The position numbers and the translations under genes were made by a program. DNA of 64,000 nt from Promethearchaeota archaeon. Its GTDB lineage: Archaea; Asgardarchaeota; Lokiarchaeia; Sigyniarchaeales; SOKP01. Position 1 is the first letter of the stretch. Each line of letters starts with the position of its first letter. This document shows positions 26,147-50,025 of the stretch, piece after piece. The stretch spans positions 297,166-361,165 of the forward strand of contig JAHPZJ010000013.1 in the NCBI GenBank assembly GCA_019058245.1, read 5' to 3'. The notes beneath the pieces are model-generated. The model was not told where the DNA came from, ran no database searches, and saw only the letters and a list, made by a program, of their open reading frames with translations.

Positions 26147-26679
26147 TATAATTTTTTATCAGCACCTACTGCTTTTAATAAAGTTTGAACTTCATTGACA
26201 TCTGGTGTAACAACACCAGGTAAGCCTAATTGCTCACGTCTTCTCTCGATAGCTGGTTGAGATGGAATTGCTTTACCACTTTCAAATACTGTTTTTGCTT
26301 GAGCTACAATATTATCAGGTGCCAGTCCTGCTCCTGTTGTAACGTTTTTTGCTAATGCTATTATTTCCGTAACCTCAATCGCCTGAGGACAAACAGTATC
26401 ACAAGTATCGCATACTGTACAACCCCATGGTATGATTGCAGATTTTGTGCCTGCTAACATCATTACTACATCTTTATATCCTAAAAGAGTTCCTAAAACA
26501 ATTAATCTAGGATCAAAAACGTTTTCATAAAAAGGATTAGCTACAGAGGCAACAGGACAATTATCCGTACATCTATTACATTGATAACAGTATTTGATTT
26601 TATCAGATCCAATATGAACGTCCATTATTAATTTCCTAAATTCAAAATCTATACCTACAGGTAATGCCATTTTTTTCAC
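26146..26679 (-). CDS. hdrC: Heterodisulfide reductase subunit C, copy 1 (likely ATG start at about 26670)
   Basis: CYQCNRCTDNCP and WGCTVCDTCDTVCPQ; adjacent to hdrB. Confidence 0.9.
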   Translation of the reverse strand: MKKMALPVGIDFEFRKLIMDVHIGSDKIKYCYQCNRCTDNCPVASVANPFYENVFDPRLIVLGTLLGYKDVVMMLAGTKSAIIPWGCTVCDTCDTVCPQAIEVTEIIALAKNVTTGAGLAPDNIVAQAKTVFESGKAIPSQPAIERRREQLGLPGVVTPDVNEVQTLLKAVGADKKL

Positions 26680-26720
26680 GTTTTTTTTGAGTTTTTTTCA
26701 TTTCATTTTTACTTATTTTT

Positions 26721-26795
26721 TGTTGGTTTTAACCCATGCAAGGGCAGTCATATCCAATCTATTATTTTTATTGGATAATTCATCCTAAACCAACA
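26721..26795 (-). promoter_or_regulatory. Eukaryote-type SECIS element of vhuU
   Basis: Minus-strand RNA UGUUGGUUU-AGG-AUGAA-U-UAUCCAAU-AAAAAUAAUAG-AUUGGAUA-UGAC-UGCCCUUGCAUGGGUUA-AAACCAACA. It has an AUGA/GA core, an 8-bp upper helix, an A-rich loop and a 9-bp basal helix. Confidence 0.85.
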
Positions 26796-26929
26796 TTTAG
26801 CTCACGAGAGTAAATTTCTTTACCCCTCTCATCAACAACAGTGATGTGAGCGGCACATGATAGTCAACAATCATAACATCGAACTATCATTTCCAAGACA
26901 TTTACTACTCCTTCTGGTATATCACTCAT
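26780..26929 (-). CDS. vhuU: Selenoprotein VhuU, the C-terminal peptide of the split [NiFeSe] hydrogenase large subunit (49 aa; not in the ORF track)
   Basis: Manual translation MSDIPEGVVNVLEMIVRCYDC-U-LSCAAHITVVDERGKEIYSRELNVGLG*. The in-frame TGA at 26864-26866 falls in the L2 motif that the upstream vhuA lacks; a SECIS follows. Confidence 0.93.
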
Positions 26930-26966
26930 TTTTTTTATTCACGCTCTATATTAATTTTGAATTAAT

Positions 26967-28274
26967 CTATTTAATCCATGGATCTGGTAATTTTAATCCG
27001 TCCAAGGCTTTATCTTCAAATACTTGCTTCGCTGAGTGCATTAAAGACTTTTCGATTCCTGCGATGTTATGATTTGTAGCAACTAAAAGATTCAACTTCT
27101 TACAAATACCTTCAGCATCAGACCAAATGTTATATAGGAGAAGTCCTCGTGGAGCTTCTGTAACTCCAACACCATTTCCTTCTCTTGGTTCAACATCGAG
27201 TGTTTTGCAATCAGGATTCACGATATCAGGATCTTTGAGTAATGTAGCAATCATCTCAATTGATTCTACCATTTCAATTATTCTCGCCCAGTGATATGCA
27301 AAAGTATGGTGTATTACATTAGTACCTATTTTTTCTCTCATTGCCTTTAACGCATCATCTGCTAATGGTGTAGCCATTTTGTCAGCACAATTAATCATTG
27401 CTAAAGTATTCGCTCGATAAATACCCTCAGGGTATCCCGCTGGCTTATAGTACATATGAGTTGCATAAGAATGTTTAGGAATATGTTCTCCAAGTGCTTC
27501 CAGATAATTTTGAGGTTTATAATCAAATTTCTCTCCGGTTGGAGAAACAATTCGGATATCACCATCATAAATATCATGAACACCATTTTTTGTTAACCCT
27601 ACATAATAAGTAGGCACAACACCGACATTAGCTACAACATCCCAATAATCTTCTACAACTTTTAAAGCAATATCAACCGTTTTCTTTGTAAATTCTATTT
27701 GTTCATCAATTACTTTTAAGAATTTATCACGTACGTCTTCATCTAAAGGCTTTTTCATGCCTCCAACTATCGCAGATATTGGATGAACAGCTTTACCACC
27801 TACTGCAGCACATAATTTCTGACCGAAATCCATCATCTTTAACGCCATAGCTCCAACATCAGGCATTTTATTTATTACATGAACAACATTTCTTAAAGCC
27901 GGATCTGCGAAAGGTCCTAATAAGAAATCAGGAGCCGCAAGAGCATAGAAATGAATAACATGTGATGAATATTGTTTCGCATTGATTAATAACTGTCGTA
28001 ATTTATATGCGGGGGTAGGTATCTGAACACCCCAAGCGTCTTCTACTGCTTTAGTGGGTGTTAGATGATGAGGAATTGGACAAATACCACAAATTCTTGG
28101 AGTTATTCGAGGTACATGTTCGCAATAACGTCCCTCGACAAATTTCTCAAAAAATCTTGTTGATTGGATATTGAATTGAACATCCTTTACTGTACCATCA
28201 TCTCCAAGTACTACCCTCAACCCACCATGACCCTCTAATCGGGTAACAGGTTCAACTTCTATTTCTTTTACCAT
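26967..28274 (-). CDS. vhuA: F420-non-reducing (group 3c) [NiFe] hydrogenase large subunit, lacking the C-terminal L2 motif
   Basis: EPVTRLEGHG, RICGICPIPH (L1), EAPRGLL; ends at ...PDPWIK with no DPCxxC. Confidence 0.93.
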   Translation of the reverse strand: MVKEIEVEPVTRLEGHGGLRVVLGDDGTVKDVQFNIQSTRFFEKFVEGRYCEHVPRITPRICGICPIPHHLTPTKAVEDAWGVQIPTPAYKLRQLLINAKQYSSHVIHFYALAAPDFLLGPFADPALRNVVHVINKMPDVGAMALKMMDFGQKLCAAVGGKAVHPISAIVGGMKKPLDEDVRDKFLKVIDEQIEFTKKTVDIALKVVEDYWDVVANVGVVPTYYVGLTKNGVHDIYDGDIRIVSPTGEKFDYKPQNYLEALGEHIPKHSYATHMYYKPAGYPEGIYRANTLAMINCADKMATPLADDALKAMREKIGTNVIHHTFAYHWARIIEMVESIEMIATLLKDPDIVNPDCKTLDVEPREGNGVGVTEAPRGLLLYNIWSDAEGICKKLNLLVATNHNIAGIEKSLMHSAKQVFEDKALDGLKLPDPWIK

Positions 28275-28277
28275 TTA

Positions 28278-29603
28278 TTATGCACCTCCTTTTCTTGATG
28301 CTAATGTAAATTTCTCAAAAGTACCAATAGGATCTTTGACTTGGGAAAGCAATTCCTCTTTAGATAAGCTTATGTTAAATCCTTTCAGTACTGTATCAGC
28401 AAACCTCTCTGCTTGATTAACACCCCATTTGGTCTGTCCATAACAACCCGTACATGGAGCATTAACTTTAATGCATAAGGCACCACAGCCAGCTTGAGTT
28501 ACAGGACCCATACAAATATAACCTTGTTCAAGTAAACAATCTTCCATATTTGGTATTCCTTCGTAATCTCGCTTAACCCTTGTCATTGTAGATTTACTTC
28601 CAATGATTCTTGGACATGTATCACAGACATTTGAAATTTCATGGAAATCAGGATTATCTCTTAAGAAGCTCATTAAATTCGAAGCAATTTCCTCAGTTGT
28701 AGGGGGAAGATTTGCTAATTGTGTCTCTGGAGCACCATGTTTCTTTATTTGTTTTAAAATATCACCAGCAAGATCAAAACCAGCCATTAAAGGAAGATTT
28801 AAAAACAGTGGTAAAAATTCAAAAATACTCTTTTTATCACCTGAACTTATGGCTCCAAGATCTTTTGTCATACTATTTAATTTTTCAGCTCTAACACCTA
28901 CTGTCTTAGCCGGTCCCATACAACCTAAACATGGAGATCCATTATTTGGACATTTCAATGAACATCCAATGCTTGTAATTGGTCCGAAACACAATTTACC
29001 TGCATCTAATAGACATCCAGATTGATTTAATGCACAATCATTACAAAATGCCAAATCATTCATAGGGAATGGCTTTTGACCGAGTAAAAACCCAATTGCA
29101 CTATATATTTGTTGTGATTTTGGAGGACACCCCGACATATATGCATCCACTTTGATTACCCTATCTACGGGTACAATCTTGGATTCAAAACCAGGAACAT
29201 GTTCCGTTGGTTCTCCACCACTTTCATCTGCAATACTCTCTACTTGTGAGAATTTTCTGTCAATTAACTCTTGTATATCCCATTGGTTAGCTAATCCATG
29301 TACATTTCCATAACATGAACAACTACCAAAAGCTACAATAATAGCACATTTTTGACGCATTAATTTTGTACCTTCAACATCTTGTTTAGTTCGAAGGCTC
29401 CCTTCTATAAATCCAACAACAATTTCACCATCTTCTCTAGCTTCCAACGAATTATACTTGAAATCAACTACTGCTGGCCAATAGACAATCTCTAGCGCTG
29501 GTAAGACTGGCAAAAGGGCTAGATGTAAATCAATTAAACTCTGATGACAACCCCAACAGTCACTATTTTGCCAAAATGCAACCTTAACAGGTATAGAGAT
29601 CAC
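28278..29603 (-). CDS. vhuG: Hydrogenase small subunit (MvhG/VhuG type) with a duplicated C-terminal Fe-S domain; start codon uncertain (GTG 29603 or ATA 29594)
   Basis: CWGCH, AFGSCSCYG, SGCPP; two copies of CxxC...CLL..G.(L/I)C.GP.T..GC...C....PC.GC.G. Confidence 0.9.
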   Translation of the reverse strand: MISIPVKVAFWQNSDCWGCHQSLIDLHLALLPVLPALEIVYWPAVVDFKYNSLEAREDGEIVVGFIEGSLRTKQDVEGTKLMRQKCAIIVAFGSCSCYGNVHGLANQWDIQELIDRKFSQVESIADESGGEPTEHVPGFESKIVPVDRVIKVDAYMSGCPPKSQQIYSAIGFLLGQKPFPMNDLAFCNDCALNQSGCLLDAGKLCFGPITSIGCSLKCPNNGSPCLGCMGPAKTVGVRAEKLNSMTKDLGAISSGDKKSIFEFLPLFLNLPLMAGFDLAGDILKQIKKHGAPETQLANLPPTTEEIASNLMSFLRDNPDFHEISNVCDTCPRIIGSKSTMTRVKRDYEGIPNMEDCLLEQGYICMGPVTQAGCGALCIKVNAPCTGCYGQTKWGVNQAERFADTVLKGFNISLSKEELLSQVKDPIGTFEKFTLASRKGGA

Positions 29604-30290
29604 CTCTTTTAATTTTAGCAGTTTTTACAGCCATTTTATTTTTCACTTTTGTTGTTTTTTTTTGATTTTAAATTATCTAATTTGTTATAAAAATAATTAG
29701 TTGAGATAGTTTATTCATAACTTTATTAAAAACTTCTGATTAAGTTTATGATTAGACAGATTTATTTAAATTCAAGTTTATGAATAAATATTCAAAATAC
29801 TTAGTGAGTTAATTTGAATCGTTTTTTTAAATACGAAATTGATAGTACGTTTTAATAATTAAAAAATGATTTTCTGTCAAATTGTCATAAAAATATAATC
29901 TAATTTTATTATTTTTTTAAAAAATATATTTTCTGTTTTGCTTATTAAAATTAAACTATACGTCCTTCCTTAATCAATTCAGCTATTATTTGTCGATCAA
30001 CATTATCTAATAGCATTTTTAAATACTGAGATTAATTTTATTAATTATAACTTTATTGCAAGTTTTTAAAAATTGTTGATTATAAAAATTCAATTAGCTT
30101 ATATCTTTAATAAATAAATTAGTATATTCCTCTTTTATATTAAAAAAGCCATCGCTTCTTAAACTATATTGAAATAAATCGGTAATACATAGTTTATATT
30201 GATTATTATTAATGATTTGTAACAATTTTCATTACTTCATTTAAAAATTAAGTATATCATTATTATTTTTATTGTCATACAAAATTTCAA

Positions 30291-30378
30291 CTTTCAATTT
30301 GAAATTTTTTATAGAATTTTGTTGCAGAATGAAACTAGAAGGCAATAAACTGTTTAAAGCTTCCTAAATCCTTATAAG
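30291..30378 (+). promoter_or_regulatory. Putative Lrp-type operator array and TATA box upstream of the Lrp/AsnC gene
   Basis: CTTTCA-ATT-TGAAAT (30291), GTTGCA-GAA-TGAAAC (30321), GTTTAA half-site (30352), CTTATAAG (30371). Confidence 0.65.
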
Positions 30379-30420
30379 GAATCAATTTTTTTTTATATAA
30401 GCATTTCTAATAATATAATT

Positions 30421-30984
30421 ATGCCTTTAGATCAAATTGATAGACAAATTCTAAAATTATTATTTGAAAATGGTCGAGAAAGCTTAAGCTCATTGAGTTT
30501 AAACGTTTTAAAATCAAACAAAGAAACAATGAGTCATGCAGGTATTGCAAAAAGAATTTCAAAATTGGAGGATGAGCGTATACTTAAAATACAAGGTAAT
30601 ATTGGTATTAAGAATTTAAACTATTTTGCCGCATTTATCTTGATTGAAATGAAAAATTATGATGAACTACAAAATATAATTGAAGCTTATTCAGAATGTC
30701 CAAGAGTTTTTCTGCTGGCACAAGTTACAGGTCAATATAATTTGATATTAGGGATTATCGGGCAAAATGTGGATGTTTTACATCGATATATTAATTATTG
30801 TGGTCCTACAAATAAAAAAGGAATTTTACACTCTATGGTAATGTTCACATCCGAAATAATAGTACCTCAATTTCTTCCCCTTAATCTCTTTAGTGGTATA
30901 AGTAAGGAAGATAAATGTAGCAACATTTGTTGTGATTGTGCAGCATTTCTTGATAAAAAATGCAGTGGATGTGGTAACTTTTAA
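30421..30984 (+). CDS. Lrp/AsnC family transcriptional regulator with a C-terminal Cys-rich (metal/Fe-S) extension
   Basis: LDQIDRQILKLLFENGRES...RISKLEDERI HTH; VTGQYNL RAM motif; tail CSNICCDCAAFLDKKCSGC. Confidence 0.88.
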   Translation: MPLDQIDRQILKLLFENGRESLSSLSLNVLKSNKETMSHAGIAKRISKLEDERILKIQGNIGIKNLNYFAAFILIEMKNYDELQNIIEAYSECPRVFLLAQVTGQYNLILGIIGQNVDVLHRYINYCGPTNKKGILHSMVMFTSEIIVPQFLPLNLFSGISKEDKCSNICCDCAAFLDKKCSGCGNF

Positions 30985-31136: not shown

Positions 31137-31231
31137 GTTTCATATTGAAACTTTATTTTCTATATTGTTGAAATTTGAAACAAGACTTATTTCTGAGGTT
31201 TAAATTATCCAATTTAAGAAATGCTTATAAG
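31137..31231 (+). promoter_or_regulatory. Putative Lrp-type operator array and TATA box upstream of the HxxCH-protein/ccm operon
   Basis: Perfect GTTTCA-TAT-TGAAAC (31137), GTTGAA-ATT-TGAAAC (31167), GTTTAA half-site (31198), CTTATAAG (31224). Confidence 0.7.
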
Positions 31232-31295: not shown

Positions 31296-31970
31296 GTGAT
31301 TCTGAAAATGAACAAGAAAATTTTGAGATTGTTCATTATATTCTTCTTTGTTTTTGCAACTATAGGAACTGTTAGTGCTTGGCCTGGATATATGACAGAA
31401 TGGGACGAAACTGATCATGGATCATGTCATGCGGGAACCTATACTGAGTCTACAGGTACATTATCTGCAACAATTACTCCTGTAAATACCACAACTGTTA
31501 CACTCGATCCTGGAACTACCTTTAATGTTACCCTTGATATTACAGGATTTACTGCGGCAGCAAATATGCACGTTTTAGTTGGTATATCTGCTAAAATTAG
31601 TGATAATCATGATTTTTTTTTTGGTGTTCATAATGATACAGGAGAGCTTGGGGCAACTGCCTTTGAGATTGGATTAGACGCCTCTGGAAATGCTAATAAC
31701 ACAGTAACTATTATTACATTCGCTCCTACTACTGGTGGTTCTCATACATTAACAATTGTGGCTGTTGAAGGAGGAGAATCATTCTCTACTTATCACCCAT
31801 TTAATTACATTAAAACTGAAATAACAGTTACAGTTAAATCTACAAGTAGTGGTGGTATTCCAGGATACAGTATTTTCTTCATTATTTCAGCAGGGATTAT
31901 AACTACTGTACCAATAGTATTAATTATACTTCGTAAAAGAAAAAATCATAAAGGAGTTGAGTTCAATTGA
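31296..31970 (+). CDS. Secreted, C-terminally anchored putative haem protein with an H-x2-C-H motif (likely ATG at 31308)
   Basis: Signal peptide ...TVSA|WPG; DHGSCH holds the only Cys; beta-rich body; GGIPGYS-TM-RKRK sorting/anchor tail; first gene upstream of ccmC. Confidence 0.65.
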   Translation: MILKMNKKILRLFIIFFFVFATIGTVSAWPGYMTEWDETDHGSCHAGTYTESTGTLSATITPVNTTTVTLDPGTTFNVTLDITGFTAAANMHVLVGISAKISDNHDFFFGVHNDTGELGATAFEIGLDASGNANNTVTIITFAPTTGGSHTLTIVAVEGGESFSTYHPFNYIKTEITVTVKSTSSGGIPGYSIFFIISAGIITTVPIVLIILRKRKNHKGVEFN

Positions 31971-32644
31971 AGAAGAATAAAATGATTGTGTTAGCTGTAA
32001 TTACTACAATGATATTCGGTTTAGTAGGTTATGTAGTTGCTCATCCCACAGAAATTGTAAATTATACGGGAGCAACTCATGTTTCAACTGGTTGTCATGG
32101 TACAAATGGCGTTGCTTCTAGCGGAACTCTTCAAGTATCAGCCTCAACTTCTGGTAAGTTGATTACTCTTACTGCTACAATACAAGGATTTACAGATGCA
32201 ATTACGACAAATAATAGATCTGGGACATTTTCTATCGGAATTCCTTATGATCTTGGAGATAATAGGGAATTTGGACTAGGAATAGCGCAGAATACTGTTA
32301 ATGGCGAAACTAATTATTGGGGAATTGGTATATGGGACGTTGAGTTAGATTCAAATGGAAATACAGTTAATCCCTTGAAATTTAGAGTGCTAGCTCCTGA
32401 AGCTGAAGGATCATATAATTTAATTGTTGCTGTTATAAATGGAGCAAATACAGCGGGAGATGTACAAAGTATTATTTATATGCACAAAATAATATCTGTT
32501 ATAGTAACCGGTGGAAGTGTAACAATTGCTTCTCTAACTATGATCTTTCCTCTAAATAATATATTTCTTTATGCAACTTTCGGAATATTTGGTACTGGGA
32601 TGATGATTTTCGTGTTTAAGCGTAGAAAAATTAGAAAAAATTAA
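31967..32644 (+). CDS. Secreted, C-terminally anchored putative haem protein with an H-x4-C-H motif (paralog of the upstream gene)
   Basis: Signal ...YVVA|HPT; THVSTGCHG holds the only Cys; shares 'DN..F', 'LD.SGN/LDSNGN' and 'AP...GS..L.(I/V)' with the upstream gene; C-terminal TM plus KRRK. Confidence 0.65.
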   Translation: MKKNKMIVLAVITTMIFGLVGYVVAHPTEIVNYTGATHVSTGCHGTNGVASSGTLQVSASTSGKLITLTATIQGFTDAITTNNRSGTFSIGIPYDLGDNREFGLGIAQNTVNGETNYWGIGIWDVELDSNGNTVNPLKFRVLAPEAEGSYNLIVAVINGANTAGDVQSIIYMHKIISVIVTGGSVTIASLTMIFPLNNIFLYATFGIFGTGMMIFVFKRRKIRKN

Positions 32645-32717
32645 CTAAATCTAACTATAATAATTAATTTTTTTTTTATAAACCTTAAAATTTTAAATGA
32701 AAAAACAAATTTTTTAA

Positions 32718-33524
32718 ATGTCTGTTAAAAAAGTAAAGGAAAGATCTAATTCAAATTTAAAGAGTATAATGATACGAAATAAAAAAGATCAATTAGATCT
32801 ATTGAAAATCGTTAAACATCATTTATTATTAACAATTTCACTTATTATGTTAATTATTAGTTTATTATTAATTATAATTTTAACTTCAAATAATCTAATT
32901 ATTTGGGGTTCACCTAATCGAATTATCTATACTATTTTTTTTTATCATGTATCCGGAGCATGGCTTTCATATTTCTCTTTTGGAATTAGTTTGATTTTTC
33001 ATATTCTATATTTAAAGTCTCGTAAAAATATTTGGATTAACTTGGGTAAAAATAGTATACTAGTTGGAGTATGTTTTTCTGGATTTACTCTTATAACAGG
33101 TTCGCTTTGGTTTAATGCTACATCGGGAGATTATAATAATATTTTTTGGGTATGGGGTGATGCTCGACAGACTACTACATTAGTATTATTCCTTTCTTAT
33201 TTATCTTATCTTGTATTTGCTAAAATGATTGAAGACAGGGAAAAAAAGGCTAAATTAACAGCACTACTTGGTATCGTGCTATTTCCAACAGTTCCCTTAA
33301 GTTACATTTCTACAATAGTTTTTACAAGTTTACATCCTTTAATTAACCCAACTCCTGGTGAACCTGGAAATATTTACTGGGATCCTTTGAAACTATTTAT
33401 GTTATTTTTCAATTTAATTGCAATGACCATATTATTTATGTATATTATAAAAGAATTAACTTTTTTAGATAAAAAAAAAGATGAATTAGAGAAAATTAAA
33501 CAAATTCGTTTATTGAGAGATTAA
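32718..33524 (+). CDS. ccmC: Cytochrome c maturation haem-handling protein CcmC
   Basis: FFYHVSGAW, LITGSLW...FWVWGDARQTT (WWD domain), TSLHP; six TM helices. Confidence 0.88.
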   Translation: MSVKKVKERSNSNLKSIMIRNKKDQLDLLKIVKHHLLLTISLIMLIISLLLIIILTSNNLIIWGSPNRIIYTIFFYHVSGAWLSYFSFGISLIFHILYLKSRKNIWINLGKNSILVGVCFSGFTLITGSLWFNATSGDYNNIFWVWGDARQTTTLVLFLSYLSYLVFAKMIEDREKKAKLTALLGIVLFPTVPLSYISTIVFTSLHPLINPTPGEPGNIYWDPLKLFMLFFNLIAMTILFMYIIKELTFLDKKKDELEKIKQIRLLRD

Positions 33525-33530
33525 TTAAAG

Positions 33531-33677
33531 ATGTCAATAGAGTATCTGGACCAAGATTTACTAACAATAATTATAAGTTATTTGTTATTCTGGGCTATTT
33601 TAATCATCCTAATTTTATATCCAAAACTAAAGTTAAAAAAAGTTCTTAAAAGTATTAAAAGATTAGAAAATTCATAA
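33531..33677 (+). CDS. ccmD: CcmD-like small membrane protein (48 aa; not in the ORF track)
   Basis: Manual translation MSIEYLDQDLLTIIISYLLFWAILIILILYPKLKLKKVLKSIKRLENS*. Single TM with SY, then a basic tail; lies between ccmC and ccmE. Confidence 0.7.
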   Translation: MSIEYLDQDLLTIIISYLLFWAILIILILYPKLKLKKVLKSIKRLENS

Positions 33678-33691
33678 AACAGGTGTGAAAT

Positions 33692-34030
33692 GTGAAAAAA
33701 TCTAGAATTATAGCAATTATTGGAGTTGTTGTTTCGATTGGTGTTATAATAGCTTTATTATCTATAAATACACGTCCTTACCTCAAAGTATCTCAAGTTG
33801 TATCACATTCCACTCGTTATGATAATAAAGAAATTCAAATTATTGGTATTGTCGAAGGATATGTTTCCAGTGATTTTAATTTAACTGAGGGTGAGCATAG
33901 TATCTTTATTGATATTAATAACATTTCTCCTCCTAGTACGCTAAAAAATGGAATTGAAGTTGTTGTAATTGGAATTTTTAGTTCTAACCTAATTTTAGTA
34001 GCGGAACAGATTCTTACTCAATGTAGTTAG
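33692..34030 (+). CDS. ccmE: Haem chaperone CcmE, Cys-type, truncated after C-S
   Basis: N-terminal TM, 'YLKVSQV', 'PPSTLKNGIEVVVIG', 'AEQILTQCS*' corresponding to A..(V/I)L.K(H/C)xxxY. Confidence 0.8.
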   Translation: MKKSRIIAIIGVVVSIGVIIALLSINTRPYLKVSQVVSHSTRYDNKEIQIIGIVEGYVSSDFNLTEGEHSIFIDINNISPPSTLKNGIEVVVIGIFSSNLILVAEQILTQCS

Positions 34031-34035
34031 AAAAT

Positions 34036-34761
34036 TTAGTCATACAAAAGTACATGAGAAATTAAAGTTAAGATTGAAATCATAAGGATTATATGAGCAA
34101 ACAAAAATCCTATTTCATAAATTAGATCATGTACTAATACTCCTTGTAATAGTTTTATATTTAATGAAATTATTGGAGTTGTTATAGGAATAATTAGAGG
34201 GAAAAGTATAATTGGTAAGATAAAAGACTTGTTTTTAGCATACATTGATAAAGCGGACACCAGACTTCCGCTTATAGATAAATCAAAAGTAGGCAATATG
34301 ATTCCTAAAATGATGTAGGTTAATACTTGAATTGAACTTATTCTACCTATTAACGGTGCAGATAAAAAGAAACTAAAAAGGTACAAAATACTCTCGATTA
34401 AAGTCATTAAAATTAAACAATATATAGTTTTACTGTAAAGAATTATATTTGGATAGATTGGAGATGAAATTAGACCATTTATCGTACCCGATTCCTTTTC
34501 TTTGATGAATAATTTTGCCATAATATAGATAAGAGTAAAAAAGATAATTATCCAATTTTGAATCATAAAAATCTCTAAAGGCATATTTTGATATTGAGTT
34601 CCAAAATTATAAACTGATGAGAATATGAAAATTGAGATAATATCAAAAAGAATTACAGCAAATAAATCATTCACTTGCCGAACTTCAGATTTAATATCTT
34701 TTATAAGTATAGTTTTAAATTGCTTTAATTTTAATTTTAATGATATATTTTCTGTTTTCAA
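34036..34761 (-). CDS. ccmB: Haem ABC exporter permease CcmB
   Basis: KDIKSEVR, FIKEKESGTINGLISSP, ILPIILFPLIIP. Confidence 0.88.
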   Translation of the reverse strand: MKTENISLKLKLKQFKTILIKDIKSEVRQVNDLFAVILFDIISIFIFSSVYNFGTQYQNMPLEIFMIQNWIIIFFTLIYIMAKLFIKEKESGTINGLISSPIYPNIILYSKTIYCLILMTLIESILYLFSFFLSAPLIGRISSIQVLTYIILGIILPTFDLSISGSLVSALSMYAKNKSFILPIILFPLIIPITTPIISLNIKLLQGVLVHDLIYEIGFLFAHIILMISILTLISHVLLYD

Positions 34762-34773
34762 AAAAACACCTTT

Positions 34774-35493
34774 TTAAAATAGTGATTCAATTTCATCAAA
34801 TTCTTCATCTGTAATCCTTTTTTCAATTCTGCCTTTTTTTAAAATAATCAAATCATTACATAATTGTTGAAATAAGTCTGTCTTATGGGTCGTAAGAATT
34901 ACTGTAACATTTTTTTTTTGATTCATTTCTCTGATAAATTTAATTAGCCTATCTGTTGCTGCATAATCTAAACCAGAAAAGGGTTCATCTAAAAATAATA
35001 TTGAGGGTCTATGGATTATAGATCTTATCAATTCTACCTTTTGTTTCATTCCATGGGATAAAGTTCTTACAGGTTCATTAATCCAATCTGTAAGCTCAAA
35101 TCTTTCAACTAATTTGTTAATTTCCCGCATAATATCTCCTTTTTCAAAAATTAAATGTAAGTTACAATAGAATTTTAAATTCTCATAAACAGTTAATTCC
35201 TCATATAGAAAGGATTCATCAATAGTTATTCCAATATTCTGATAAATAATTCTTGAATTTTCTTTATAATTCATTCCCCCTATTTCAACATTTCCAAAAG
35301 TAGGTTTAATCAATCCTGATAGTATTTTAATAAGAGTTGTTTTACCCGCTCCATTCGCACCAGCTATCCCAAATATTGTACTTTTTTTAATAGTAAAAGA
35401 ATTATTTTTGAGGGCAAAAAAAAACCCATATTGTTTTGAAATGTTATTACAATTTATTAAATTATTATCGGATTCAACCATAATCTGAATCAT
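34774..35493 (-). CDS. ccmA: ABC ATPase CcmA
   Basis: GANGAGKTT, LSHGMKQK, LFLDEPFSGLD; directly upstream of ccmB. Confidence 0.85.
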   Translation of the reverse strand: MIQIMVESDNNLINCNNISKQYGFFFALKNNSFTIKKSTIFGIAGANGAGKTTLIKILSGLIKPTFGNVEIGGMNYKENSRIIYQNIGITIDESFLYEELTVYENLKFYCNLHLIFEKGDIMREINKLVERFELTDWINEPVRTLSHGMKQKVELIRSIIHRPSILFLDEPFSGLDYAATDRLIKFIREMNQKKNVTVILTTHKTDLFQQLCNDLIILKKGRIEKRITDEEFDEIESLF

Positions 35494-35668
35494 ATATATT
35501 ATGAAATTTAAAAATTATAATAATTTGAAGGAATTAAAAGTAAAAAAATAATTGTTATTTAATTTATATTATCGAATTTAATTTTCTTGTTATTAATTTG
35601 AATAGGATTGAAATTTCATTAGTTGTTATAATCTATAAACCATCTAAATAAAATTTGTGAATTGAAAC

Positions 35669-37360
35669 TCAATTTTTGTTGAAAAAGGTTGTTAATATTG
35701 AAGGAATTATCCCGCTCAATAGAAAAATAAAGCCTGTGATGTAAAAAATATCTTGAAAAATCCAAAAATTCTTACTTATTAAAAATCCGATCATAATAAA
35801 TGAGATTCCAGCATGAATTATTGTTTTAGAATTTAACTTGAAAAAATGTTTGATTCCTTTCTTAAATTTTAAATTTGTTATAATAGACCAAAAAGACACT
35901 ATTACCGCTATAAAAAATATTCCTATAGAGGGATTAATCCAAATATCAAGAAGCACTAATCCTATGACTGAAAATATTGATTGAATCGTAAAGACTATAA
36001 TTATCAAGCATATCATTAATTTTATCCCAATTTTTTCATAAGTAATACAAAAGATTAATGATAAAGACAAACAAATAGCTAATGTTAATGTAGTTATAAT
36101 AAAATAATCTGTCCCTATATAAATTATGTTTATGGGAAAGAATTCTGATAGTAATACCGTTAAAGGTGTAACAAAAAGCCCGAATATGCATACAAAAGAT
36201 AAGCTAAATAAAAATATGTAACTTAAGTAATTAAAGAGAAGCTTCAATTTTCTATAATCCTGTAATATATAATCAAGAATAATATATATTACGTAGAGAG
36301 AAAATATTATTAAAATTAATCCAGTTATAGTCAACCAAATAATTAATTCAGTTCCTCCAATATAAGAATGAAGTGGAGATATTCCTGCTCTTGTAACTAG
36401 TGTAGAAAAAATAATAGCAATAAAGATTAATCCAAGATTTACTTTCACTAAATTTTGATTTTTCTTTTGAAAAGTCATAGTATGAAAGTAAGCAGTAATG
36501 AAAAACCATGGGATAAGAGATACTGTTTCAACCTGATCCCAACCCCAATATCTTCCCCAGTTCAATGCAATCTTAGCCCAATATGCACCCAATCCAATAC
36601 CTAAAGTAAGAATCAACCATCCAAACTTTAAAGTAAATTTATAAAAATTTTGTTGAAACGATTCTAATAGAGTTGTGTCTTTTGTTAAAATTTCTGCAAT
36701 CACGACTGTAAATGGAATTAGAAAAATCGCATATGCAATAAATGTAAAAAATGGATGCCAAATCATAAATGGAGATATTAAAAGTGGATTCAAGCCTAAT
36801 CCATCAGAAGGAGACGATGATTGGAGTTCAAAAGGATTTAAATAAAATAATATTATCAAAAAAAGGGATGAAACTATCGATGATATTATAACAGATCGAA
36901 TGAATACGATATCTTTATTGTTATTATTTCCCATTCGAAATAGATTGATCATTATTGCATTAAATAACATCCATGTCATGATGGATCCTTCTTCACCAGC
37001 CCAAATAGCAACAATTTTATAAATTATAGGGAGTGAATTATTGCTAAAACTCCACACATATATAATTTTATAGATGTTATTTAGAAAGCTGTAAACCATA
37101 ATTAAAAATAAAATCACCGATAGGCTCATTGATAAAATTGATAAAAAATAAGCATTTTGTTTTTTAACAATTAATAGAATAAGATCCAAAATCATGATTA
37201 TTATTAAAAAAATGATTAAAAAGTTGCCTAGAAAGGATATAAAAACAATTCTATAACTTAATTCTATTAAATCTAATACTAAAGGAATTATTAATATAAA
37301 GATAAGAATTAAGCTGAAATTAATAATAACCAGCTTTTTTATCGATATATTAATAGACAT
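35669..37360 (-). CDS. ccmF: Cytochrome c synthetase CcmF (compact form)
   Basis: WAGEEGS, GLNPLL...WHP, GAYWA...WGRYWGWDQVETVSLIPW, TRAG...HS, C-terminal IIHAG. Confidence 0.92.
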   Translation of the reverse strand: MSINISIKKLVIINFSLILIFILIIPLVLDLIELSYRIVFISFLGNFLIIFLIIIMILDLILLIVKKQNAYFLSILSMSLSVILFLIMVYSFLNNIYKIIYVWSFSNNSLPIIYKIVAIWAGEEGSIMTWMLFNAIMINLFRMGNNNNKDIVFIRSVIISSIVSSLFLIILFYLNPFELQSSSPSDGLGLNPLLISPFMIWHPFFTFIAYAIFLIPFTVVIAEILTKDTTLLESFQQNFYKFTLKFGWLILTLGIGLGAYWAKIALNWGRYWGWDQVETVSLIPWFFITAYFHTMTFQKKNQNLVKVNLGLIFIAIIFSTLVTRAGISPLHSYIGGTELIIWLTITGLILIIFSLYVIYIILDYILQDYRKLKLLFNYLSYIFLFSLSFVCIFGLFVTPLTVLLSEFFPINIIYIGTDYFIITTLTLAICLSLSLIFCITYEKIGIKLMICLIIIVFTIQSIFSVIGLVLLDIWINPSIGIFFIAVIVSFWSIITNLKFKKGIKHFFKLNSKTIIHAGISFIMIGFLISKNFWIFQDIFYITGFIFLLSGIIPSILTTFFNKN

Positions 37361-37550
37361 TAAAAAAACACCTAGAATGTATTATTTAAGGGTTTTAATA
37401 AAGGTTTTTAAAAATAAAACTTGGGTATAATTTAGGTGCAATTTTTGCTATAAATCTTTAAAAAAATCTTTATTTTTAAATTATATAAACAAGATATAAA
37501 AAGCAATACTCATAGATTAAAAATATTTCAGCTTGAGTAAATGATAAATC

Positions 37551-38423
37551 ATGAATAAGAAAATTTTTTACTTTGGTACTTGCATTATTGTGTTGATGAC
37601 TTTCTCACTTTTTATCTTCGGAACCGCAAGGCCTCAATTTGGAGACACTCATTCTGAGAGTGGATGTCATGGATCATCGGGGGGTTATACAATTTCGTAT
37701 ACCACACCTGAAGAAAATCTTATAAATAATACTCCTTATTTTACTTTTAACATTTCTGCTAGTGGACCTGATTTATTTGTACAAGCTTATCCTGGTGCGA
37801 AAGATAATGACAATTTTAATATTATTCCTTCAAATAATAAAATAGTCGACGATTCGGAAAATGATTTAAATCCAAATCACGATGCAATGAATATCATTTT
37901 CAATGTAACACCAACTGTAGAACAAAAATCTTATACATTGTTCATACTTGCAGGTAATAATATAACTGGGGGTCGACAATTCGCTTATGTTGAGATTGTA
38001 ATTGGAATTCAGCCTGGATTTGATTTCTCTTCTGTAATACTCGATCATTTAGGTTTATATTTAGGATTACCAGCTTTGTTATTAGTTTCGATTGCAACTG
38101 TCCTAGTTTTAGTAAATGAAAATAAATTCGTAAAGGTTCATGGATTACTGGCTGGTGGTGCATGGATTTTAACAATCATTAATGTTATTGTTGCTGTAAT
38201 AAAAATACCTGCGAGAGCTTGGCTTGGGGGTTATAATTTAGTTTATCATCTTCCTCATATAATTCTTGGCTCGATTGGTTTGGTTACTGGTTTTTTAAGT
38301 ATATTGTTTGGAATTGCGGCAGAGAGGAGACCAGCAAAAATCACAGGATATATTACTGTACTCTGTTGGTGGGGTGCTTTCTTTTTAGGTTTTTTTCTAA
38401 ACTCCAATTTATTTTTAATTTGA
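37551..38423 (+). CDS. Secreted H-x4-C-H domain fused to a four-TM cytochrome b561-like domain
   Basis: Signal ...FGTA|RPQ; THSESGCHG; TM histidines in DHLGLYLG, FVKVHGLL and LPHIILG. Confidence 0.62.
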   Translation: MNKKIFYFGTCIIVLMTFSLFIFGTARPQFGDTHSESGCHGSSGGYTISYTTPEENLINNTPYFTFNISASGPDLFVQAYPGAKDNDNFNIIPSNNKIVDDSENDLNPNHDAMNIIFNVTPTVEQKSYTLFILAGNNITGGRQFAYVEIVIGIQPGFDFSSVILDHLGLYLGLPALLLVSIATVLVLVNENKFVKVHGLLAGGAWILTIINVIVAVIKIPARAWLGGYNLVYHLPHIILGSIGLVTGFLSILFGIAAERRPAKITGYITVLCWWGAFFLGFFLNSNLFLI

Positions 38424-38445: not shown

Positions 38446-39939
38446 ATGGGTCAATCTAATAATAATTTGAAAAGTAATTATAGGAAAAGCAGAGAAAAGG
38501 ATCTTGAAAATCAATTTTTAGAATTTATATCTCCTTATCACGTAAGCACAAATCCTTTTGAACTTGAATCTGCTTCAGCAGATCTTACTTCTCTACCCGC
38601 TTACCATTATAAATTCAAGAAAAAATATTTAGCTAGTTATGTTATCCGTCCAGCCAACATGAATGAACTATCATTAGCTATAAAAAAGTGTAGAGATCTT
38701 AATATTCCCGTAACAATTCGAGCTGCTGGGACGTCATGTTTTTCTTCAGCAACACCTTCAATGGGAGGTGTAATTATAGATATACGTAGAGTAAATAAAG
38801 TCCATGAAATAAATCAAGAGAAAATGACGGTAAAAGTAGGAAGTGGAATATCTTGGCTAAATTTGATAGAAAAATTATCTGATTATGGACTTGAACCAAA
38901 AACTTTCCCAACTAGTTTTAAAACTTCATGTGTAGGAGGTTTTATTGCAACTCCAGGAAAAGCTGGTATAGGAGTATTGAAATATGGAACTATGGAATCC
39001 ACAATTATTTCTGTAGATCTAGTTAAACCAGATGGCACTGTCATCAAAGTTTCGAGAGATTCTGATCAAGAAATAAGTCTTAATGATCTTGTAGGTACAT
39101 ACGGTATATTTGGAGCAATAGGAAATGTTGAATTATCCATTACTACCCTAAAAACCTCTTTAGAGATAATAGGTTATGGATTTAACTCAATCGAGCAAGC
39201 AATAAATTTTTATTTATTAATAAAAGAGGATTTACCCAATAAACCATTATTTCTTTCAATTTCAGAAAGAAATTTTGAAAAATATTCACATATTGCTTTT
39301 CCGAAAGAGGAATGGATTGTTTGGGCAGTATATTATGATAAACCTGAACTAACATCAAAAAGTATATCAGATGTTAAAAACCAAGCCTCCAAGTTAAATT
39401 GTGTAGAAATTGAGGGTACTTATTTAAAAGAAAAGTGGCGTGATATTAGTGATGCTGAGGTATCGATAGGATCTTCAACAAGAAACCTGATATTCCAGGA
39501 ATATTGGATCTCTGATAAGAGATTAAAAAAGTTTATGGAAATATATGTTAAAAAAGTTAAGAATTATAAATTTCCTACAGCCTCATACGCAATTTCAGGA
39601 GAAAAAGGTTGGACAAGAGTGAAAATTTTTGGTTTAACAGATATCGATAGAACTATAGAATTTTTCGCAGTTAAAGCTTTCTTACATGATTTAACTGTCC
39701 AAGCCTTCAATCAAGAAGATAGACTATATACTATTGGCATTGTCAATACATTTTACTTATTAAAGTATAAATCAGAAGAAGTAAAGAAATGGAAGAATCT
39801 AAAGGATAAGTTAGACCCTAAACACTTATTCAATTCATATAGATTAACTAAAGCGAGAATGAAATTTTGGAGAGTCTCATTACTTTTTAACATGGCAAAG
39901 CTATTGTATAAAATATTTAAAATAAAACGCTCTAAATAA
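38446..39939 (+). CDS. FAD-binding oxidoreductase (GlcD/D-lactate dehydrogenase-like, VAO family)
   Basis: VIRPANMNE, PVTIRAAGTS, SCVGGFIAT, GTYGIFGAI, LKDKLDPKHLFN. Confidence 0.88.
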   Translation: MGQSNNNLKSNYRKSREKDLENQFLEFISPYHVSTNPFELESASADLTSLPAYHYKFKKKYLASYVIRPANMNELSLAIKKCRDLNIPVTIRAAGTSCFSSATPSMGGVIIDIRRVNKVHEINQEKMTVKVGSGISWLNLIEKLSDYGLEPKTFPTSFKTSCVGGFIATPGKAGIGVLKYGTMESTIISVDLVKPDGTVIKVSRDSDQEISLNDLVGTYGIFGAIGNVELSITTLKTSLEIIGYGFNSIEQAINFYLLIKEDLPNKPLFLSISERNFEKYSHIAFPKEEWIVWAVYYDKPELTSKSISDVKNQASKLNCVEIEGTYLKEKWRDISDAEVSIGSSTRNLIFQEYWISDKRLKKFMEIYVKKVKNYKFPTASYAISGEKGWTRVKIFGLTDIDRTIEFFAVKAFLHDLTVQAFNQEDRLYTIGIVNTFYLLKYKSEEVKKWKNLKDKLDPKHLFNSYRLTKARMKFWRVSLLFNMAKLLYKIFKIKRSK

Positions 39940-40042: not shown

Positions 40043-41386
40043 ATGAGTGAAGGAAAAGAAAAAGTTGATTTAAAAAATATAGTAACTTCTGGTCCACCTG
40101 TAGCAGGTTTAGTTTCTCCATCAAGAGAAAATTTAGTCGAACCTTCAGATAAGTATAAAGATGAAAAATCTTTTGAACGATGTACTCATTGTGGTTACTG
40201 CCGTCATGTTTGTAAAGTTTATAATACCTCTTGGTGTGAAACTGACTATGCTGGAGGTCGTAATAGAATTATCAAAGCATTGGATCGAAAGGATATTAAA
40301 TTCGACAAGGAACAAATAATACCTTCAGTTTTTCGTTGTATGTTATGTGGTAATTGCAAAGTTGTGTGTCCAGTTCAAGTAGATACACTAAGTGTTTTCC
40401 AGAATTTTAGGAAAAAAGTAGTAAAAAAAGGAGCAATACCTGAAAAATTAAAAATCCTTAAAAGTTCGATTATAGAAAATAATAATCCATTTCTAGAAAA
40501 ACATAGTGATAGATTTAATTGGATAAATGCTTGTGAAGAGGGAGCTGAAGCTTATGAAAGGAGTTCTCAGAGACTGGAACCCCAAGTAAAAGAGAAAGGA
40601 GATTATTCTGTCGGGTATTTTGTTGGGTGTACATCTTGTTATCGAAATAAAGAACTTGTATCGGCTACTAGTCGTGTTTTAAAGAAATTAGGCGTTGAGT
40701 TCACACTTTTTCCCGAAGAAAGATGTTGTGGTTCTGTATTGTTTCGAACGGGATTAGAAGATGAAGCTATGGAACTTGTAAAGCATAATTATGAAATGAT
40801 TCGTAAAAGTGGAGTAAAAGAAGTTGTTTTTTCATGTTCGGGTTGTTTTTCAACGTTTACACTTGAATATTCCAAATTTGCTAATCATAACCTTGGATTT
40901 GATTTGTATCATCTTACTCAATATGCTTTAAAAATTGTAAAGGAAAAAAATCTTAAAATTAGATATACAAAACGCACAAAAGATGATCCTTTACTTATTA
41001 CTTATCATGATCCATGTCATTTAGGCAGATATTGCAATGTTTTTGAAGAACCTAGAGAACTTATTCAAAGAATTGAAGGAGTAAAATTATTTGAAATGAA
41101 ACACAATAGAGAAATGTCTTGGTGTTGCGGTGCAGGAGGTGGTGTGAAAGCTCTATATGGAGATATGGCACTTGAAGTAGGAAGGGACAGAATCTCGGAA
41201 ACACGTGCTTGTATGGTTCGAATGCGAGAAGATCGTTTAAAAGAAGCAATTGAGACATCGGCAGAAGTTCTTGTAAGTTCCTGTGTCTTCTGTAAGAATA
41301 ATTTATTTCAAGTCGCTACTGAAGATAATTCTCCAATAAAAGTTATGGATATTTCACAACTTTTAGCTGATTGTGAGTTTTATTAG
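40043..41386 (+). CDS. Fe-S oxidoreductase (GlcF/HdrD-like: two [4Fe-4S] motifs plus two CCG domains)
   Basis: CTHCGYCRHVC, CMLCGNCKVVCP, YFVGC, ERCCG, CSGC, YHDPCHLGR, CCGAGGG, SCVFC. Confidence 0.9.
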   Translation: MSEGKEKVDLKNIVTSGPPVAGLVSPSRENLVEPSDKYKDEKSFERCTHCGYCRHVCKVYNTSWCETDYAGGRNRIIKALDRKDIKFDKEQIIPSVFRCMLCGNCKVVCPVQVDTLSVFQNFRKKVVKKGAIPEKLKILKSSIIENNNPFLEKHSDRFNWINACEEGAEAYERSSQRLEPQVKEKGDYSVGYFVGCTSCYRNKELVSATSRVLKKLGVEFTLFPEERCCGSVLFRTGLEDEAMELVKHNYEMIRKSGVKEVVFSCSGCFSTFTLEYSKFANHNLGFDLYHLTQYALKIVKEKNLKIRYTKRTKDDPLLITYHDPCHLGRYCNVFEEPRELIQRIEGVKLFEMKHNREMSWCCGAGGGVKALYGDMALEVGRDRISETRACMVRMREDRLKEAIETSAEVLVSSCVFCKNNLFQVATEDNSPIKVMDISQLLADCEFY

Positions 41387-41463: not shown

Positions 41464-43602
41464 TTAATTTTTTAGAGAATCCGGAAAATCATCAGCATTT
41501 TCTAAATTATTCCAATTTAGGGATATTTCTTCTAGAGAAGGTATACTACTCAGATTTTTTGGTAATTTCGTAAGATGGTTATCATTTAGCTTTAACTTTT
41601 TAAGAGATTTTAAATTTATTAAAGAATTAGGTAATTTTTTTAATTTATTTCCAATTAACCAAATCTCTTTAAGAAAACTTAATAATCCTATCGATTCTGG
41701 TAAGAATTCAATATTGTTATCAATTAAATACAGCCTTTCCAGTGAATTAAATGAACCAATCGAATCAGGCAGATTTTTAATCTGATTACCTGTTAATTTT
41801 AGAACCTTTAACAGTTTAAGTTTGCCAAAATCTTCTGGTAAAACTACAAGTTTATTATATGATAAATCTAAAAGTTCTAAAGATCTAATCAAACAAATTG
41901 AACTTGATAATTTATGTAAATTGTTATTATTTAAATAGAAATATTTAAGAGATTTTAGGGTTCCCAGAGAATCTGGAATACTTTCTAATTTATTCCAACC
42001 TAATTTTAAAACTTCAAGAGAATTTAGTATCATTATTGATTCAGGGAGGAAGGAGAGATTATTATCTTCTAGGTTAAGAAATTTAAGTAATGACATTGAA
42101 TTCAATGAGTCTGGAAGTTTTTCTAAATTATTACTACTTAAATTAAGGTATTCGAGTGAATAGAGTAATCCAATAGAGCCAGGTAAATTTACTAATTTAT
42201 TTTGAATTAGATTTAGAGTTTGAAGAGATTTTAGCTTCCCTATAGAAGATGGGATTTCTAATAGTCTATTTCCACTAACATTCAAAAATTTTAATGACGA
42301 CAGATTTCCGATTGATTTTGGAAGATAAGTTAGACAGTTCATTTCTAAATTTAAATGAAGTAACGATGAAAGCTTACCTATTGAATCTGGGAGTTTCTCT
42401 ATTTTGTTTTTACTTAAATTTAAAAGTTTTAAAGATGTAAGTGATAAAATTGATTTATTAATATTTTTAAGATTATTTCCTTCTAGATCTAAAGCTTTTA
42501 AGTTTTTTAAGGAAGCAATTGATTTGTTAATTTTATAGAGATTGCATTTTTTTAATAGAAGTGATCTTAGTGAACGAAAATACTTTATATAACATGGAAA
42601 TTTAACAAGAGGTACTTTTTCAATATGAATTGAAATAAGTTCCCCCATTGATACTTTATAATTTATGATTGGATATTTTTTTCTTAAATATGAGATAGTC
42701 AAATAATTTCTAAATATATCTGATAATTTCGAGAGTGATAAATCTTCAAAAGTTCCTGAAAGGTGTTTAAATGATAATTTAAATTTTTTATCATCAATAC
42801 TCCTTATTTGATCTATTAATACCTCTCTCGCTGCTTCATTGTTTAATCTTTCTAATGCTATTGTCAGTGCGATTGAGTTTTTAAAATTGAACTCATCTTT
42901 AATTGACCATTCAGTTGAGAAGAATTTTATTTTTTTTAGTCGTTCTAGATTTTTAATACCAAGAATTTCAGAATGATCCTGAAAAGCATCTCTATCTCGC
43001 CAATAAATAGCTTGGTTATCAACTTCAGAAAAATCTAAATAAGTTATAAATCCCTTCTTTTCTAAAAATTTAAGTCTGTGAAATTTCTTTTTTAGATTTT
43101 TAATGGTGATTTGATTTATGAGTATATTTCCTAATTCATTACTTGAAAATGACGTAGAATTATTATTATTAAAGAAAAAATGCGTCTTATCCTCGAAAAT
43201 TTCAGAACTTATTCTATTCAGTTCATCGATTAATGCTTTTATGATTTTATCATCATTATAAGCTTTTAAAGCTTTAACTATTGTTATTAAACAGTTATAA
43301 GAAGATTCATGCTTTAGAGCCCAGAGAAATGGAGATATTGCTTTTTTGGGATATTTATCCTTTAAAACATTTGCTGCAAAATATCTCAAATCATCATTTA
43401 TTTCGGATATAAGTATATATTCTAAAACATTGAATACATTTTTTTGTTTTAAATCAATTTTATTTAAGATTTTAATACAATCTTTTTTAATGGTATCATC
43501 ATTTATGTTTTCGATGAAATCCAGTAATAATCTGACTGTTTCACCTTCATTAAATGCTTGACTTCTAAAATTTTCATAAATTCTATTTGGTGTTAACTCC
43601 AT
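41464..43602 (-). CDS. Leucine-rich repeat protein with an N-terminal HEAT-like region
   Basis: About 16 repeats of 23 aa (LPxSIGxLxxLxxLxLxxNxLxx) in the C-terminal half; HEAT-like 'NDDLRYFAANVL' at the N-terminus. Confidence 0.9.
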   Translation of the reverse strand: MELTPNRIYENFRSQAFNEGETVRLLLDFIENINDDTIKKDCIKILNKIDLKQKNVFNVLEYILISEINDDLRYFAANVLKDKYPKKAISPFLWALKHESSYNCLITIVKALKAYNDDKIIKALIDELNRISSEIFEDKTHFFFNNNNSTSFSSNELGNILINQITIKNLKKKFHRLKFLEKKGFITYLDFSEVDNQAIYWRDRDAFQDHSEILGIKNLERLKKIKFFSTEWSIKDEFNFKNSIALTIALERLNNEAAREVLIDQIRSIDDKKFKLSFKHLSGTFEDLSLSKLSDIFRNYLTISYLRKKYPIINYKVSMGELISIHIEKVPLVKFPCYIKYFRSLRSLLLKKCNLYKINKSIASLKNLKALDLEGNNLKNINKSILSLTSLKLLNLSKNKIEKLPDSIGKLSSLLHLNLEMNCLTYLPKSIGNLSSLKFLNVSGNRLLEIPSSIGKLKSLQTLNLIQNKLVNLPGSIGLLYSLEYLNLSSNNLEKLPDSLNSMSLLKFLNLEDNNLSFLPESIMILNSLEVLKLGWNKLESIPDSLGTLKSLKYFYLNNNNLHKLSSSICLIRSLELLDLSYNKLVVLPEDFGKLKLLKVLKLTGNQIKNLPDSIGSFNSLERLYLIDNNIEFLPESIGLLSFLKEIWLIGNKLKKLPNSLINLKSLKKLKLNDNHLTKLPKNLSSIPSLEEISLNWNNLENADDFPDSLKN

Positions 43603-44037: not shown

Positions 44038-44133
44038 TATATAAATATATCGGTTATAGATTAATTTAAACAACGCAGTGAGTTCTAGTTTCAATTTCTT
44101 ATAATATTTGCTAAAAAAGTTTCAAATTGAAAA
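44038..44133 (-). promoter_or_regulatory. Putative Lrp-type operator array and TATA box upstream of the 64-aa ORF
   Basis: Minus strand: TTTTCA-ATT-TGAAAC (44133-44119), ATAAGA-AAT-TGAAAC (44102-44088), GTTTAA-ATT (from 44071), TTTATATA (44045-44038). Confidence 0.6.
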
Positions 44134-44972: not shown

Positions 44973-45009
44973 TTTTCAATCATACTCTAAAATTGATTTT
45001 AAAAAGTTA

Positions 45010-45600: not shown

Positions 45601-45610
45601 CCCCTCCTTT

Positions 45611-46084: not shown

Positions 46085-46086
46085 TA

Positions 46087-49006: not shown

Positions 49007-49065
49007 TTTTAGTTAAACCGTCAATTTTATTGGGATTTACTGAAAATTTATTTATTTTATACTTC

Positions 49066-49692: not shown

Positions 49693-49882
49693 TTTGTTTC
49701 TTTCCTTATCTATTCTCTATATAAAAGTCATTTTAACCGATTTAGTCTAAACTTTTTTTTAAAGAATGATTAAAACAGCTAAAAGGTTATTAAGCCTTAG
49801 GAGAATAAATGTGAATCTAATATATAAGTTTTCCCTTTACATTTAATAGAGTTAGAGAACCTCTACTATTTTCCATTAAAAG

Positions 49883-49927: not shown

Positions 49928-50025
49928 TTCCTTATAAATAACCCTCATTAATTTAAGATTTATAAGCAACATTCTTTAATAACTTACATTCATTTAATTA
50001 TCATTATTTAAAATAACAAAACTAT

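Follow-up and report, generated by a model that had tools for sequence, protein, structure and literature searches.

Candidate single-cysteine c-type-like cytochromes encoded with a variant System I* cluster in a lokiarchaeial genome

The window analysed here, a stretch of 64,000 nucleotides of contig JAHPZJ010000013.1 from the Promethearchaeota archaeon assembly GCA_019058245.1 (G000; 3.09 Mb, 76% complete), contains a cytochrome c maturation (ccm) gene cluster bracketed by genes for three exported proteins without CxxCH, here called P1, P2 and P3. The arrangement had been noted in a preliminary description, and its gene calls, strands and motifs were all verified; the computational grounds for refutation named there were each tested, and none stood. 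It is likely that P1 to P3 are monohaem c-type-like cytochromes, in which haem would be bound via a single Cys by the adjacent machinery, a variant of System I*. This reading is favoured because a His occupies the Cys slot of orthologues that adjoin ccmF and multihaem genes, because CxxCH and His alleles have been swapped at one locus, because every ccmC-positive genome carries the family and a closed genome without ccm (G032) has lost the Cys, because a complete close relative (G062) offers no alternative exported CxxCH client and because the Ccm machine is both intact and co-altered, with the Ahb operon of another relative (G121) in the same block. The preliminary description had proposed a new haem-attachment system. 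Its departure from known systems stands, with CcmE lacking CxxxY and the candidate clients lacking CxxCH, but because the whole would otherwise work alike it is classed as a variant of System I* and of c-type cytochrome and not as an unrelated system.

The motif and its protein context

The motif is formed by His41/Cys44/His45 in P1 (31416-31430), His38/Cys43/His44 in P2 (32078-32098) and His34/Cys39/His40 in P3 (37650-37670). There is a single Cys in each of P1 and P2 and there are three in P3, the extra two lying outside the exported domain (Cys11 belongs to the signal peptide, Cys272 to the last transmembrane (TM) helix), which bears out the earlier count of one Cys per exported domain. Signal peptides were called from hydrophobicity and charge rather than with a dedicated predictor. 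Among 199 secreted-like open reading frames (ORFs) in the assembly, a C-H within 45 residues past the hydrophobic stretch was found only in P1, P2 and P3; H-x(2-6)-C-H would be expected 0.04 times by chance in this set and was observed three times. Its occurrence in these proteins is not due to chance.

The exported domains of P1/P2 and P3 are homologous, and an AlphaFold model of the domain is an immunoglobulin (Ig)-like beta-sandwich (predicted local distance difference test score, 87). Fold searches with P1 and P3 returned only generic Ig-like (Z up to 9.3) and helical-bundle matches, and neither cytochrome f nor b561 was listed, an outcome that excludes neither of them. The matches to the membrane bundle of P3 were likewise generic, with STEAP4 among them at Z 10.3; four His of this bundle (166, 197, 233 and 236), which is b-type-cytochrome-like, are conserved at 94-100%. 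A sequence search of the PDB gave weak, short matches to Caf1 that were taken as chance, and an Atlas feature search gave leads below 0.9, to Reelin-like archaeal clusters.

Conservation of the histidine in the first-cysteine slot

The preliminary description had made its proposal depend on conservation of the His and Cys among homologues, and all 118 full-length P3 homologues in the protein database were found to keep His, Cys and His (His-type). Across the loci of ccmF and of P3 every one of 57 distinct domains, chosen by a filter for a Cys or His motif, started the motif with His, with a spacing of two in 38, three in four and four in 15. Across 87 aligned domains there were 57 with H-x(2-6)-C-H, 21 with C-x(1,2,4)-C-H, six without the first ligand and three with C-x-H or C-x-x-H. 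The profile search that widened the family covered 1.84 billion representatives, and the only invariant positions among 110 family members were the motif Cys and His. The 57 domains include those of further members in relatives, Ig-repeat proteins of 800-1500 amino acids whose genes lie between ccmF and ccmA.

In the sister Asgard family f11, which is probably Thorarchaeia, the orthologous pair of P3 and FAD oxidoreductase genes carries C-x(2-4)-C-H, and these Cys-type P3 orthologues often adjoin ccmF and 6-7-haem CxxCH proteins. Counted from the N-terminal Pro, the first ligand lay at a distance of 6 in 14 of 14 P3 orthologues (seven Cys-type, seven His-type), and both types include members of the x2 and of the x4 class. 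Judged by this offset, the His fills the exact slot of the orthologues' first Cys, as had been claimed. One locus was found on two metagenomic contigs from near-identical organisms, with a CxxCH allele on one (L195) and a His-type allele on the other (L196). The upstream DNA of the two is 97% identical and the 3' end with the start of ccmC 89%, whereas the proteins are only 50% identical; BLAST pairs the single Cys of the one with the first Cys of the other, so the local register can be ambiguous.

His-less x-C-H, C-x-C-H and CxxCH forms also exist, as alleles that share either the locus or the neighbouring type of CcmE. The His is strict in the main clade but is not obligatory for the family. 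In a midpoint-rooted family tree for which the motif columns were kept, Cys-type, His-type, His-less and divergent ccm-less clades separate and polarity is not fixed; two rows are wrongly labelled (L109 is CxCH and L067 is CxxCH).

Several variant loci were also seen. Operons that have HdrD/HdrB-like CCG genes in place of the FAD oxidoreductase begin with a His-less P3 paralogue (L020:12306-19359; L112; L115; L116). At L018:11762-16029 a tandem ccmF pair, one with an altered WWD loop, lies beside Ig-repeat proteins with C-x3-H motifs, and the CcmE tail of this locus differs, ending with a Cys-Cys-containing sequence. Between the multihaem gene and ccmF of f11 there is a conserved protein of 723-735 amino acids with no Pfam match (L119:11144-13351, L120:9666-11837, L126, L127).

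Linkage to ccm and the search for other clients

Of 151 genomes of the order, 27 gave a strong ccmC match, and the family is present in every one of these, which extends the linkage seen in the window; the genomes are of related lineages, so such co-occurrence counts overstate independence. In one of them (G069) the only complete family member seen is His-less. The two further genomes matched by the P1/P2 profile (G095 and G140) have no ccmC match but do have ccmF. What ccm-negative genomes retain of P3 is mostly no more than its membrane part; the closed, ccm-less G032 (6.04 Mb) has a divergent full P3 in which Ala replaces the Cys.

The assembly containing the window yielded no exported CxxCH protein. 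A full census was made in G062, a 100%-complete close relative whose P3 is 91% identical, by taking the 189 places where the DNA matches CxxCH codons, dropping those with an in-motif stop and keeping ORFs of at least 90 amino acids. This left 45 CxxCH contexts in ORFs, none with a signal peptide, and the sole multi-TM membrane protein with CxxCH was a B-box-like zinc finger. A search of the 151 genomes did not detect the multihaem protein of f11, and neither PF13435 nor PF00034 (multihaem and class I cytochrome) was found in four near-complete ccm-positive genomes. The earlier supposition that no CxxCH substrate explains the ccm genes thus holds in both G000 and G062, and it is plausible from the sequences searched that surface proteins of the P1-P3 type are the only clients of this complete Ccm and that ordinary cytochrome c is absent. 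The incompleteness of G000 and the rare CxxCH family alleles at the same locus could suggest that ccm serves CxxCH cytochromes missing from the assembly, with P1 to P3 as haem-less remnants. This is largely excluded by the G062 census and by the constancy of His, Cys and His in the P3 homologues, which decay would not maintain.

In the closed 4.32 Mb genome G022 (L130:336-1538, C1 near 3134339) an exported 400-amino-acid protein with C-x-x-Y-H is encoded directly upstream of a 178-amino-acid PF01578 protein; this is possibly another non-canonical client with a minimal maturase.

The Ccm machinery

CcmA, B, C, E and F, the component set of System I*, are all encoded in the window. CcmE keeps the Cys of CxxxY and lacks the Tyr, with 27 sequences ending QCS-stop and one QCST-stop, while the CcmE of CxxCH-type f11 relatives carries CPSKY-like motifs. 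The Tyr is almost fully conserved yet not essential in E. coli (PMC6204919). In CcmC both ligand His are kept, and throughout the lineage, unlike in relatives, the WWD loop has an insertion and is without its first Trp. CcmF retains its WWD motif and four His, which we take to match those of E. coli. The same type of CcmE adjoins a C-x-C-H allele and His-less alleles, and because of this the machine looks, from its gene neighbourhoods, tolerant of one-Cys motifs and not dedicated to His.

The absence of ccmG and ccmH had also been noted. CcmH and CcdA/DsbD were indeed not found in the assembly, but this is not diagnostic, as G121 has a redoxin and CcdA inside its cluster; CcdA is sporadic. CcmH (PF03918) was not found in five genomes searched, a CxxCH-type relative included, with controls detected, and CcmG/CcdA are dispensable in Methanosarcina (PMC9084895), so the missing genes were rejected as support.

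Haem supply and evidence against covalent attachment

A number of observations weigh against the reading of P1 to P3 as c-type-like cytochromes. The Ccm system of E. coli copes very badly with single-Cys motifs, on which it becomes trapped as a complex of CcmE, haem and cytochrome (PMC3268396), and CcsBA requires both thiols (PMC8112865). No distal His or Met is conserved in the exported domain of His-type or Cys-type members, and since this is so even in the latter, the distal iron ligand may come from a partner or, like that of cytochrome f, be the N-terminal amine. The P3 membrane domain matches cytochrome b561 of Pfam with an E value of only 0.61. Co-occurrence of ccm and family across kin genomes may represent few events, and two assemblies with no ccm detected, G136 (93% complete) and G010 (78%), keep Cys-His in a divergent P3. 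Finally, hemB was not found in 150 of the 151 genomes, nor hemC in the four tested.

The persistence of Cys-His in the two ccm-negative assemblies would be expected if H/C-x(n)-C-H were a Zn, Cu or Ni site, with the linkage to ccm an inherited neighbourhood. Swaps of Cys for His are common in metal knuckles, and both such interchange and the variable spacing would suit a metal site. Such a site is nevertheless very unlikely, as it would leave an intact, conserved ccmABCDEF without any client, would have only two ligands in the His-less alleles and sits ill with the loss of the Cys from the closed genome G032, which has no ccm.

The lack of hemB fails to discriminate between the readings because it was likewise not found in five CxxCH-type relatives. 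The sole genome of the order with hemB, G121, has hemB, hemL, hemA, hemC, cobA, ahbA, ahbB, ahbC and an ahbD-like gene ~13 kb from P1, and two surface proteins of the haem-b EB_dh family are encoded between the Ahb haem b operon and P1 (L225:7914-17583, L226:5719-9733). As far as gene order can tell, this operon ties the ccm block to protohaem. The other carriers probably scavenge haem, since most of them yielded no genes for haem synthesis. P1 to P3 might alternatively be surface catchers or stores of haem b in a haem auxotroph, binding it non-covalently through His and/or Cys-thiolate ligation, with Ccm loading or recycling haem without attaching it; single-Cys motifs are poor System I substrates, and Ig-like domains on long Ig stalks resemble haem-capture proteins. 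We consider this improbable, given that orthologues and same-locus alleles carry canonical CxxCH, that P3 includes a redox-type membrane bundle and its gene is followed by a dehydrogenase operon, that the haem-making G121 keeps the whole cluster and that CcmF retains its WWD motif and four His.

Haem O, which has one vinyl and for which the second Cys would be enough, was considered and rejected, CyoE-like genes occurring in ccm-positive and ccm-negative genomes alike; none was found in G000, G062 or G061. A paralogous operon of membrane-only P3, FAD oxidoreductase and CCG protein is preceded by a CyoE/CtaB-like haem O synthase (L228:14297-18764; L050). It is present in ~21 genomes of the order, without haem synthesis and with no obvious oxidase link.

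A proposed pathway

If P1 to P3 are c-type-like cytochromes, they would be exported by Sec and anchored, as their observed architecture implies. By homology, haem b, presumably scavenged, would be loaded on CcmC and passed to Cys111 of the Tyr-less CcmE, CcmAB(D) would then release the haem and CcmF would ligate it to the client. Following canonical stereochemistry (PMC3268396) the single Cys would form a thioether to the haem 4-vinyl, with the His directly after it as proximal iron ligand. Because E. coli Ccm stalls on single-Cys substrates, this system would need another way of releasing CcmE. Most simply, either the CcmE thioether is eliminated, leaving a free 2-vinyl as in euglenozoan cytochromes (PMC5526843), or the substrate His displaces CcmE and forms a His-2-vinyl bond like that of GlbN (PMC11951088). 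The existence of His-less alleles favours elimination, while the strict His of the main clade keeps displacement alive.

The first His could, we tentatively suggest, aid release of CcmE and stay a non-covalent contact. A mixed linkage, with His-N bound to the 2-vinyl and Cys-S to the 4-vinyl after the substrate His has displaced the CcmE Cys, is rather doubtful; it would mirror E. coli, where the substrate Cys replaces the CcmE His. Against a His-vinyl bond is the presence of His-less alleles beside the same machine, and such a bond, raised in the preliminary description, is a possibility and not a finding. At a spacing of two it is unlikely on geometric grounds that the His reaches the distal face of its own haem iron.

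The four membrane His of P3 and the constancy of its FAD/Fe-S neighbours suggest that electrons are carried across the membrane. P3 would link the cytoplasmic FAD/Fe-S dehydrogenase via its His-rich membrane bundle to the outside, and P1, P2 and the stalked 800-1500-amino-acid versions of relatives would carry electrons along or away from the surface.

Gene layout and genomic setting

The genes for P1, P2 and CcmC, D and E converge with ccmF-A-B, meeting at ccmE, and transcription of those for P3, the FAD oxidoreductase and the CCG Fe-S protein diverges from that of ccmF (Table 1). The C-terminal anchor of P1 matches Loki-CTERM weakly.

Table 1. Features of the ccm/P1-P3 block and its flanks (window coordinates)
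Feature	Position	Strand	Remarks
Lrp/AsnC regulator	30421..30984	+	Cys-rich C-terminal tail; kept upstream of the cluster in relatives
GTTTCA-N3-TGAAAC	31137..31151	none	Perfect palindrome upstream of P1; possible operator, weak evidence
P1	31296..31970	+	Signal peptide, mature start X-Pro, H-x2-C-H, Ig-like beta-sandwich, C-terminal anchor
P2	31967..32644	+	P1 paralogue, H-x4-C-H, weak choice-of-anchor V match, C-terminal anchor
ccmC	32718..33524	+	Ligand His77 and His206 kept; WWD loop remodelled
ccmD-like	33531..33677	+	48 amino acids, single TM; assigned from position and conservation only
ccmE, Cys type	33692..34030	+	C-terminus Gln-Cys-Ser-stop, without Tyr
ccmB	34036..34761	-	PF03379, E 8e-11
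ccmA	34774..35493	-	ABC ATPase
ccmF, short form	35669..37360	-	563 amino acids; WWD motif and four His (202, 293, 331, 516) kept
P3	37551..38423	+	Exported Ig domain with H-x4-C-H fused to 4-TM bundle
FAD-linked oxidoreductase	38446..39939	+	PF01565; immediately follows P3 orthologues in both lineages
Fe-S/CCG-domain partner subunit	40043..41386	+	GlcF/HdrD-like

The block sits between two Hdr/Mvh-like gene clusters which, together with hypE/hypD/hypF-like genes, were recognised by sequence inspection (25265-29603, 44301-51444, 51895-57506), and a leucine-rich repeat protein is encoded at 41464-43602. One Lrp gene lies within 29603-30984, where many relatives have two divergent paralogues (L001-L003, L006, L226, L230). 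Palindromes like GTTTCA-N3-TGAAAC were seen at 30291-30335, 31137-31181, 44119-44133, 49883-49897 and 51887-51901. A scan allowing at most two mismatches gave 16 matches against 6.2 expected, a number reached by 1 of 100 shuffles, and it is possible that the palindromes upstream of hydrogenase, Hdr, hyp and cytochrome operons mark one regulon. A scan for sigma-70 promoters was no better than chance level.

Significance

System I has been held unable to mature single-Cys motifs (PMC3268396), and surveys of archaeal cytochromes begin from CxxCH (PMC4429474). If the c-type-like reading is true, a natural System I with one-Cys clients overturns the single-Cys rule and represents an undescribed way to fix haem that standard genome screens miss. 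The natural alleles (CxxCH, CxCH, HxnCH and xCH) and Tyr-less CcmE would then be probes of the release of CcmE from haem. In about one-fifth of the sampled genomes of this Loki order, annotation would have missed cytochromes at the cell surface and, possibly, a path for electrons to the outside, a point of relevance to models of syntrophy for the archaeal relatives of eukaryotes. Were the mixed linkage true, it would be new, enzymatically made haem c chemistry in a cytochrome class wiring Loki archaea to external electron partners.

Comparison with known systems

No paper on this system or on the choice-of-anchor V family was found in the literature searched, outside which most subscription papers lie. 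Choice-of-anchor V proteins (NF041895) also have an N-terminal haem-type motif followed by a beta-sandwich, but the motif is altered here; 55 of 110 members match (best E 7e-10), with those bit scores that were given lying below the 42-bit cut-off (13 for P2 and 33.5 for the best in the order). The P1-P3 family is likely, from these profile matches, to be remotely related to them. Cytochrome f has in common an X-Pro mature start, an early haem motif, an all-beta domain and a C-terminal anchor. The motif is nearer the N-terminus here, however, there is no b6f/bc context, profile and fold searches gave no support and no cytochrome f family was among the Pfam families listed for the 110 members.

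Chemical precedent for a His facing the 2-vinyl is provided by E. coli holo-CcmE (His130; PMC3268396) and by cyanobacterial GlbN (His117-2-vinyl; PMC11951088), but the former bond is that of a transient chaperone and the latter that of an autocatalytic globin, and neither is joined with a Cys thioether in a Ccm-made product. The euglenozoan mitochondrial cytochromes c and c1 (A/FxxCH; PMC5526843) have likewise lost the first Cys and kept the second Cys and His, with one 4-vinyl thioether expected. They have Ala or Phe in the first slot, whereas here there is His with a spacing of 2-6, and their class I alpha-helical fold differs from the Ig-fold beta-sandwich modelled here. The candidate maturase is also different, being System I, which is not known to mature single-Cys motifs.

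Closest is System I* (CcmABCEF) of Methanosarcina acetivorans (PMC9084895) and Desulfovibrio, with which the present system has in common CcmA, B, C, E and F, a CcmE of the Cys type, no CcmH found and optional CcmG/CcdA. It differs in that CcmE stops one residue past the Cys, without the Tyr of CxxxY, the WWD loop of CcmC is remodelled, CcmF has ~565 amino acids where CxxCH-type Asgard relatives have 690-750, there is a CcmD-like ORF and the candidate clients are without CxxCH.

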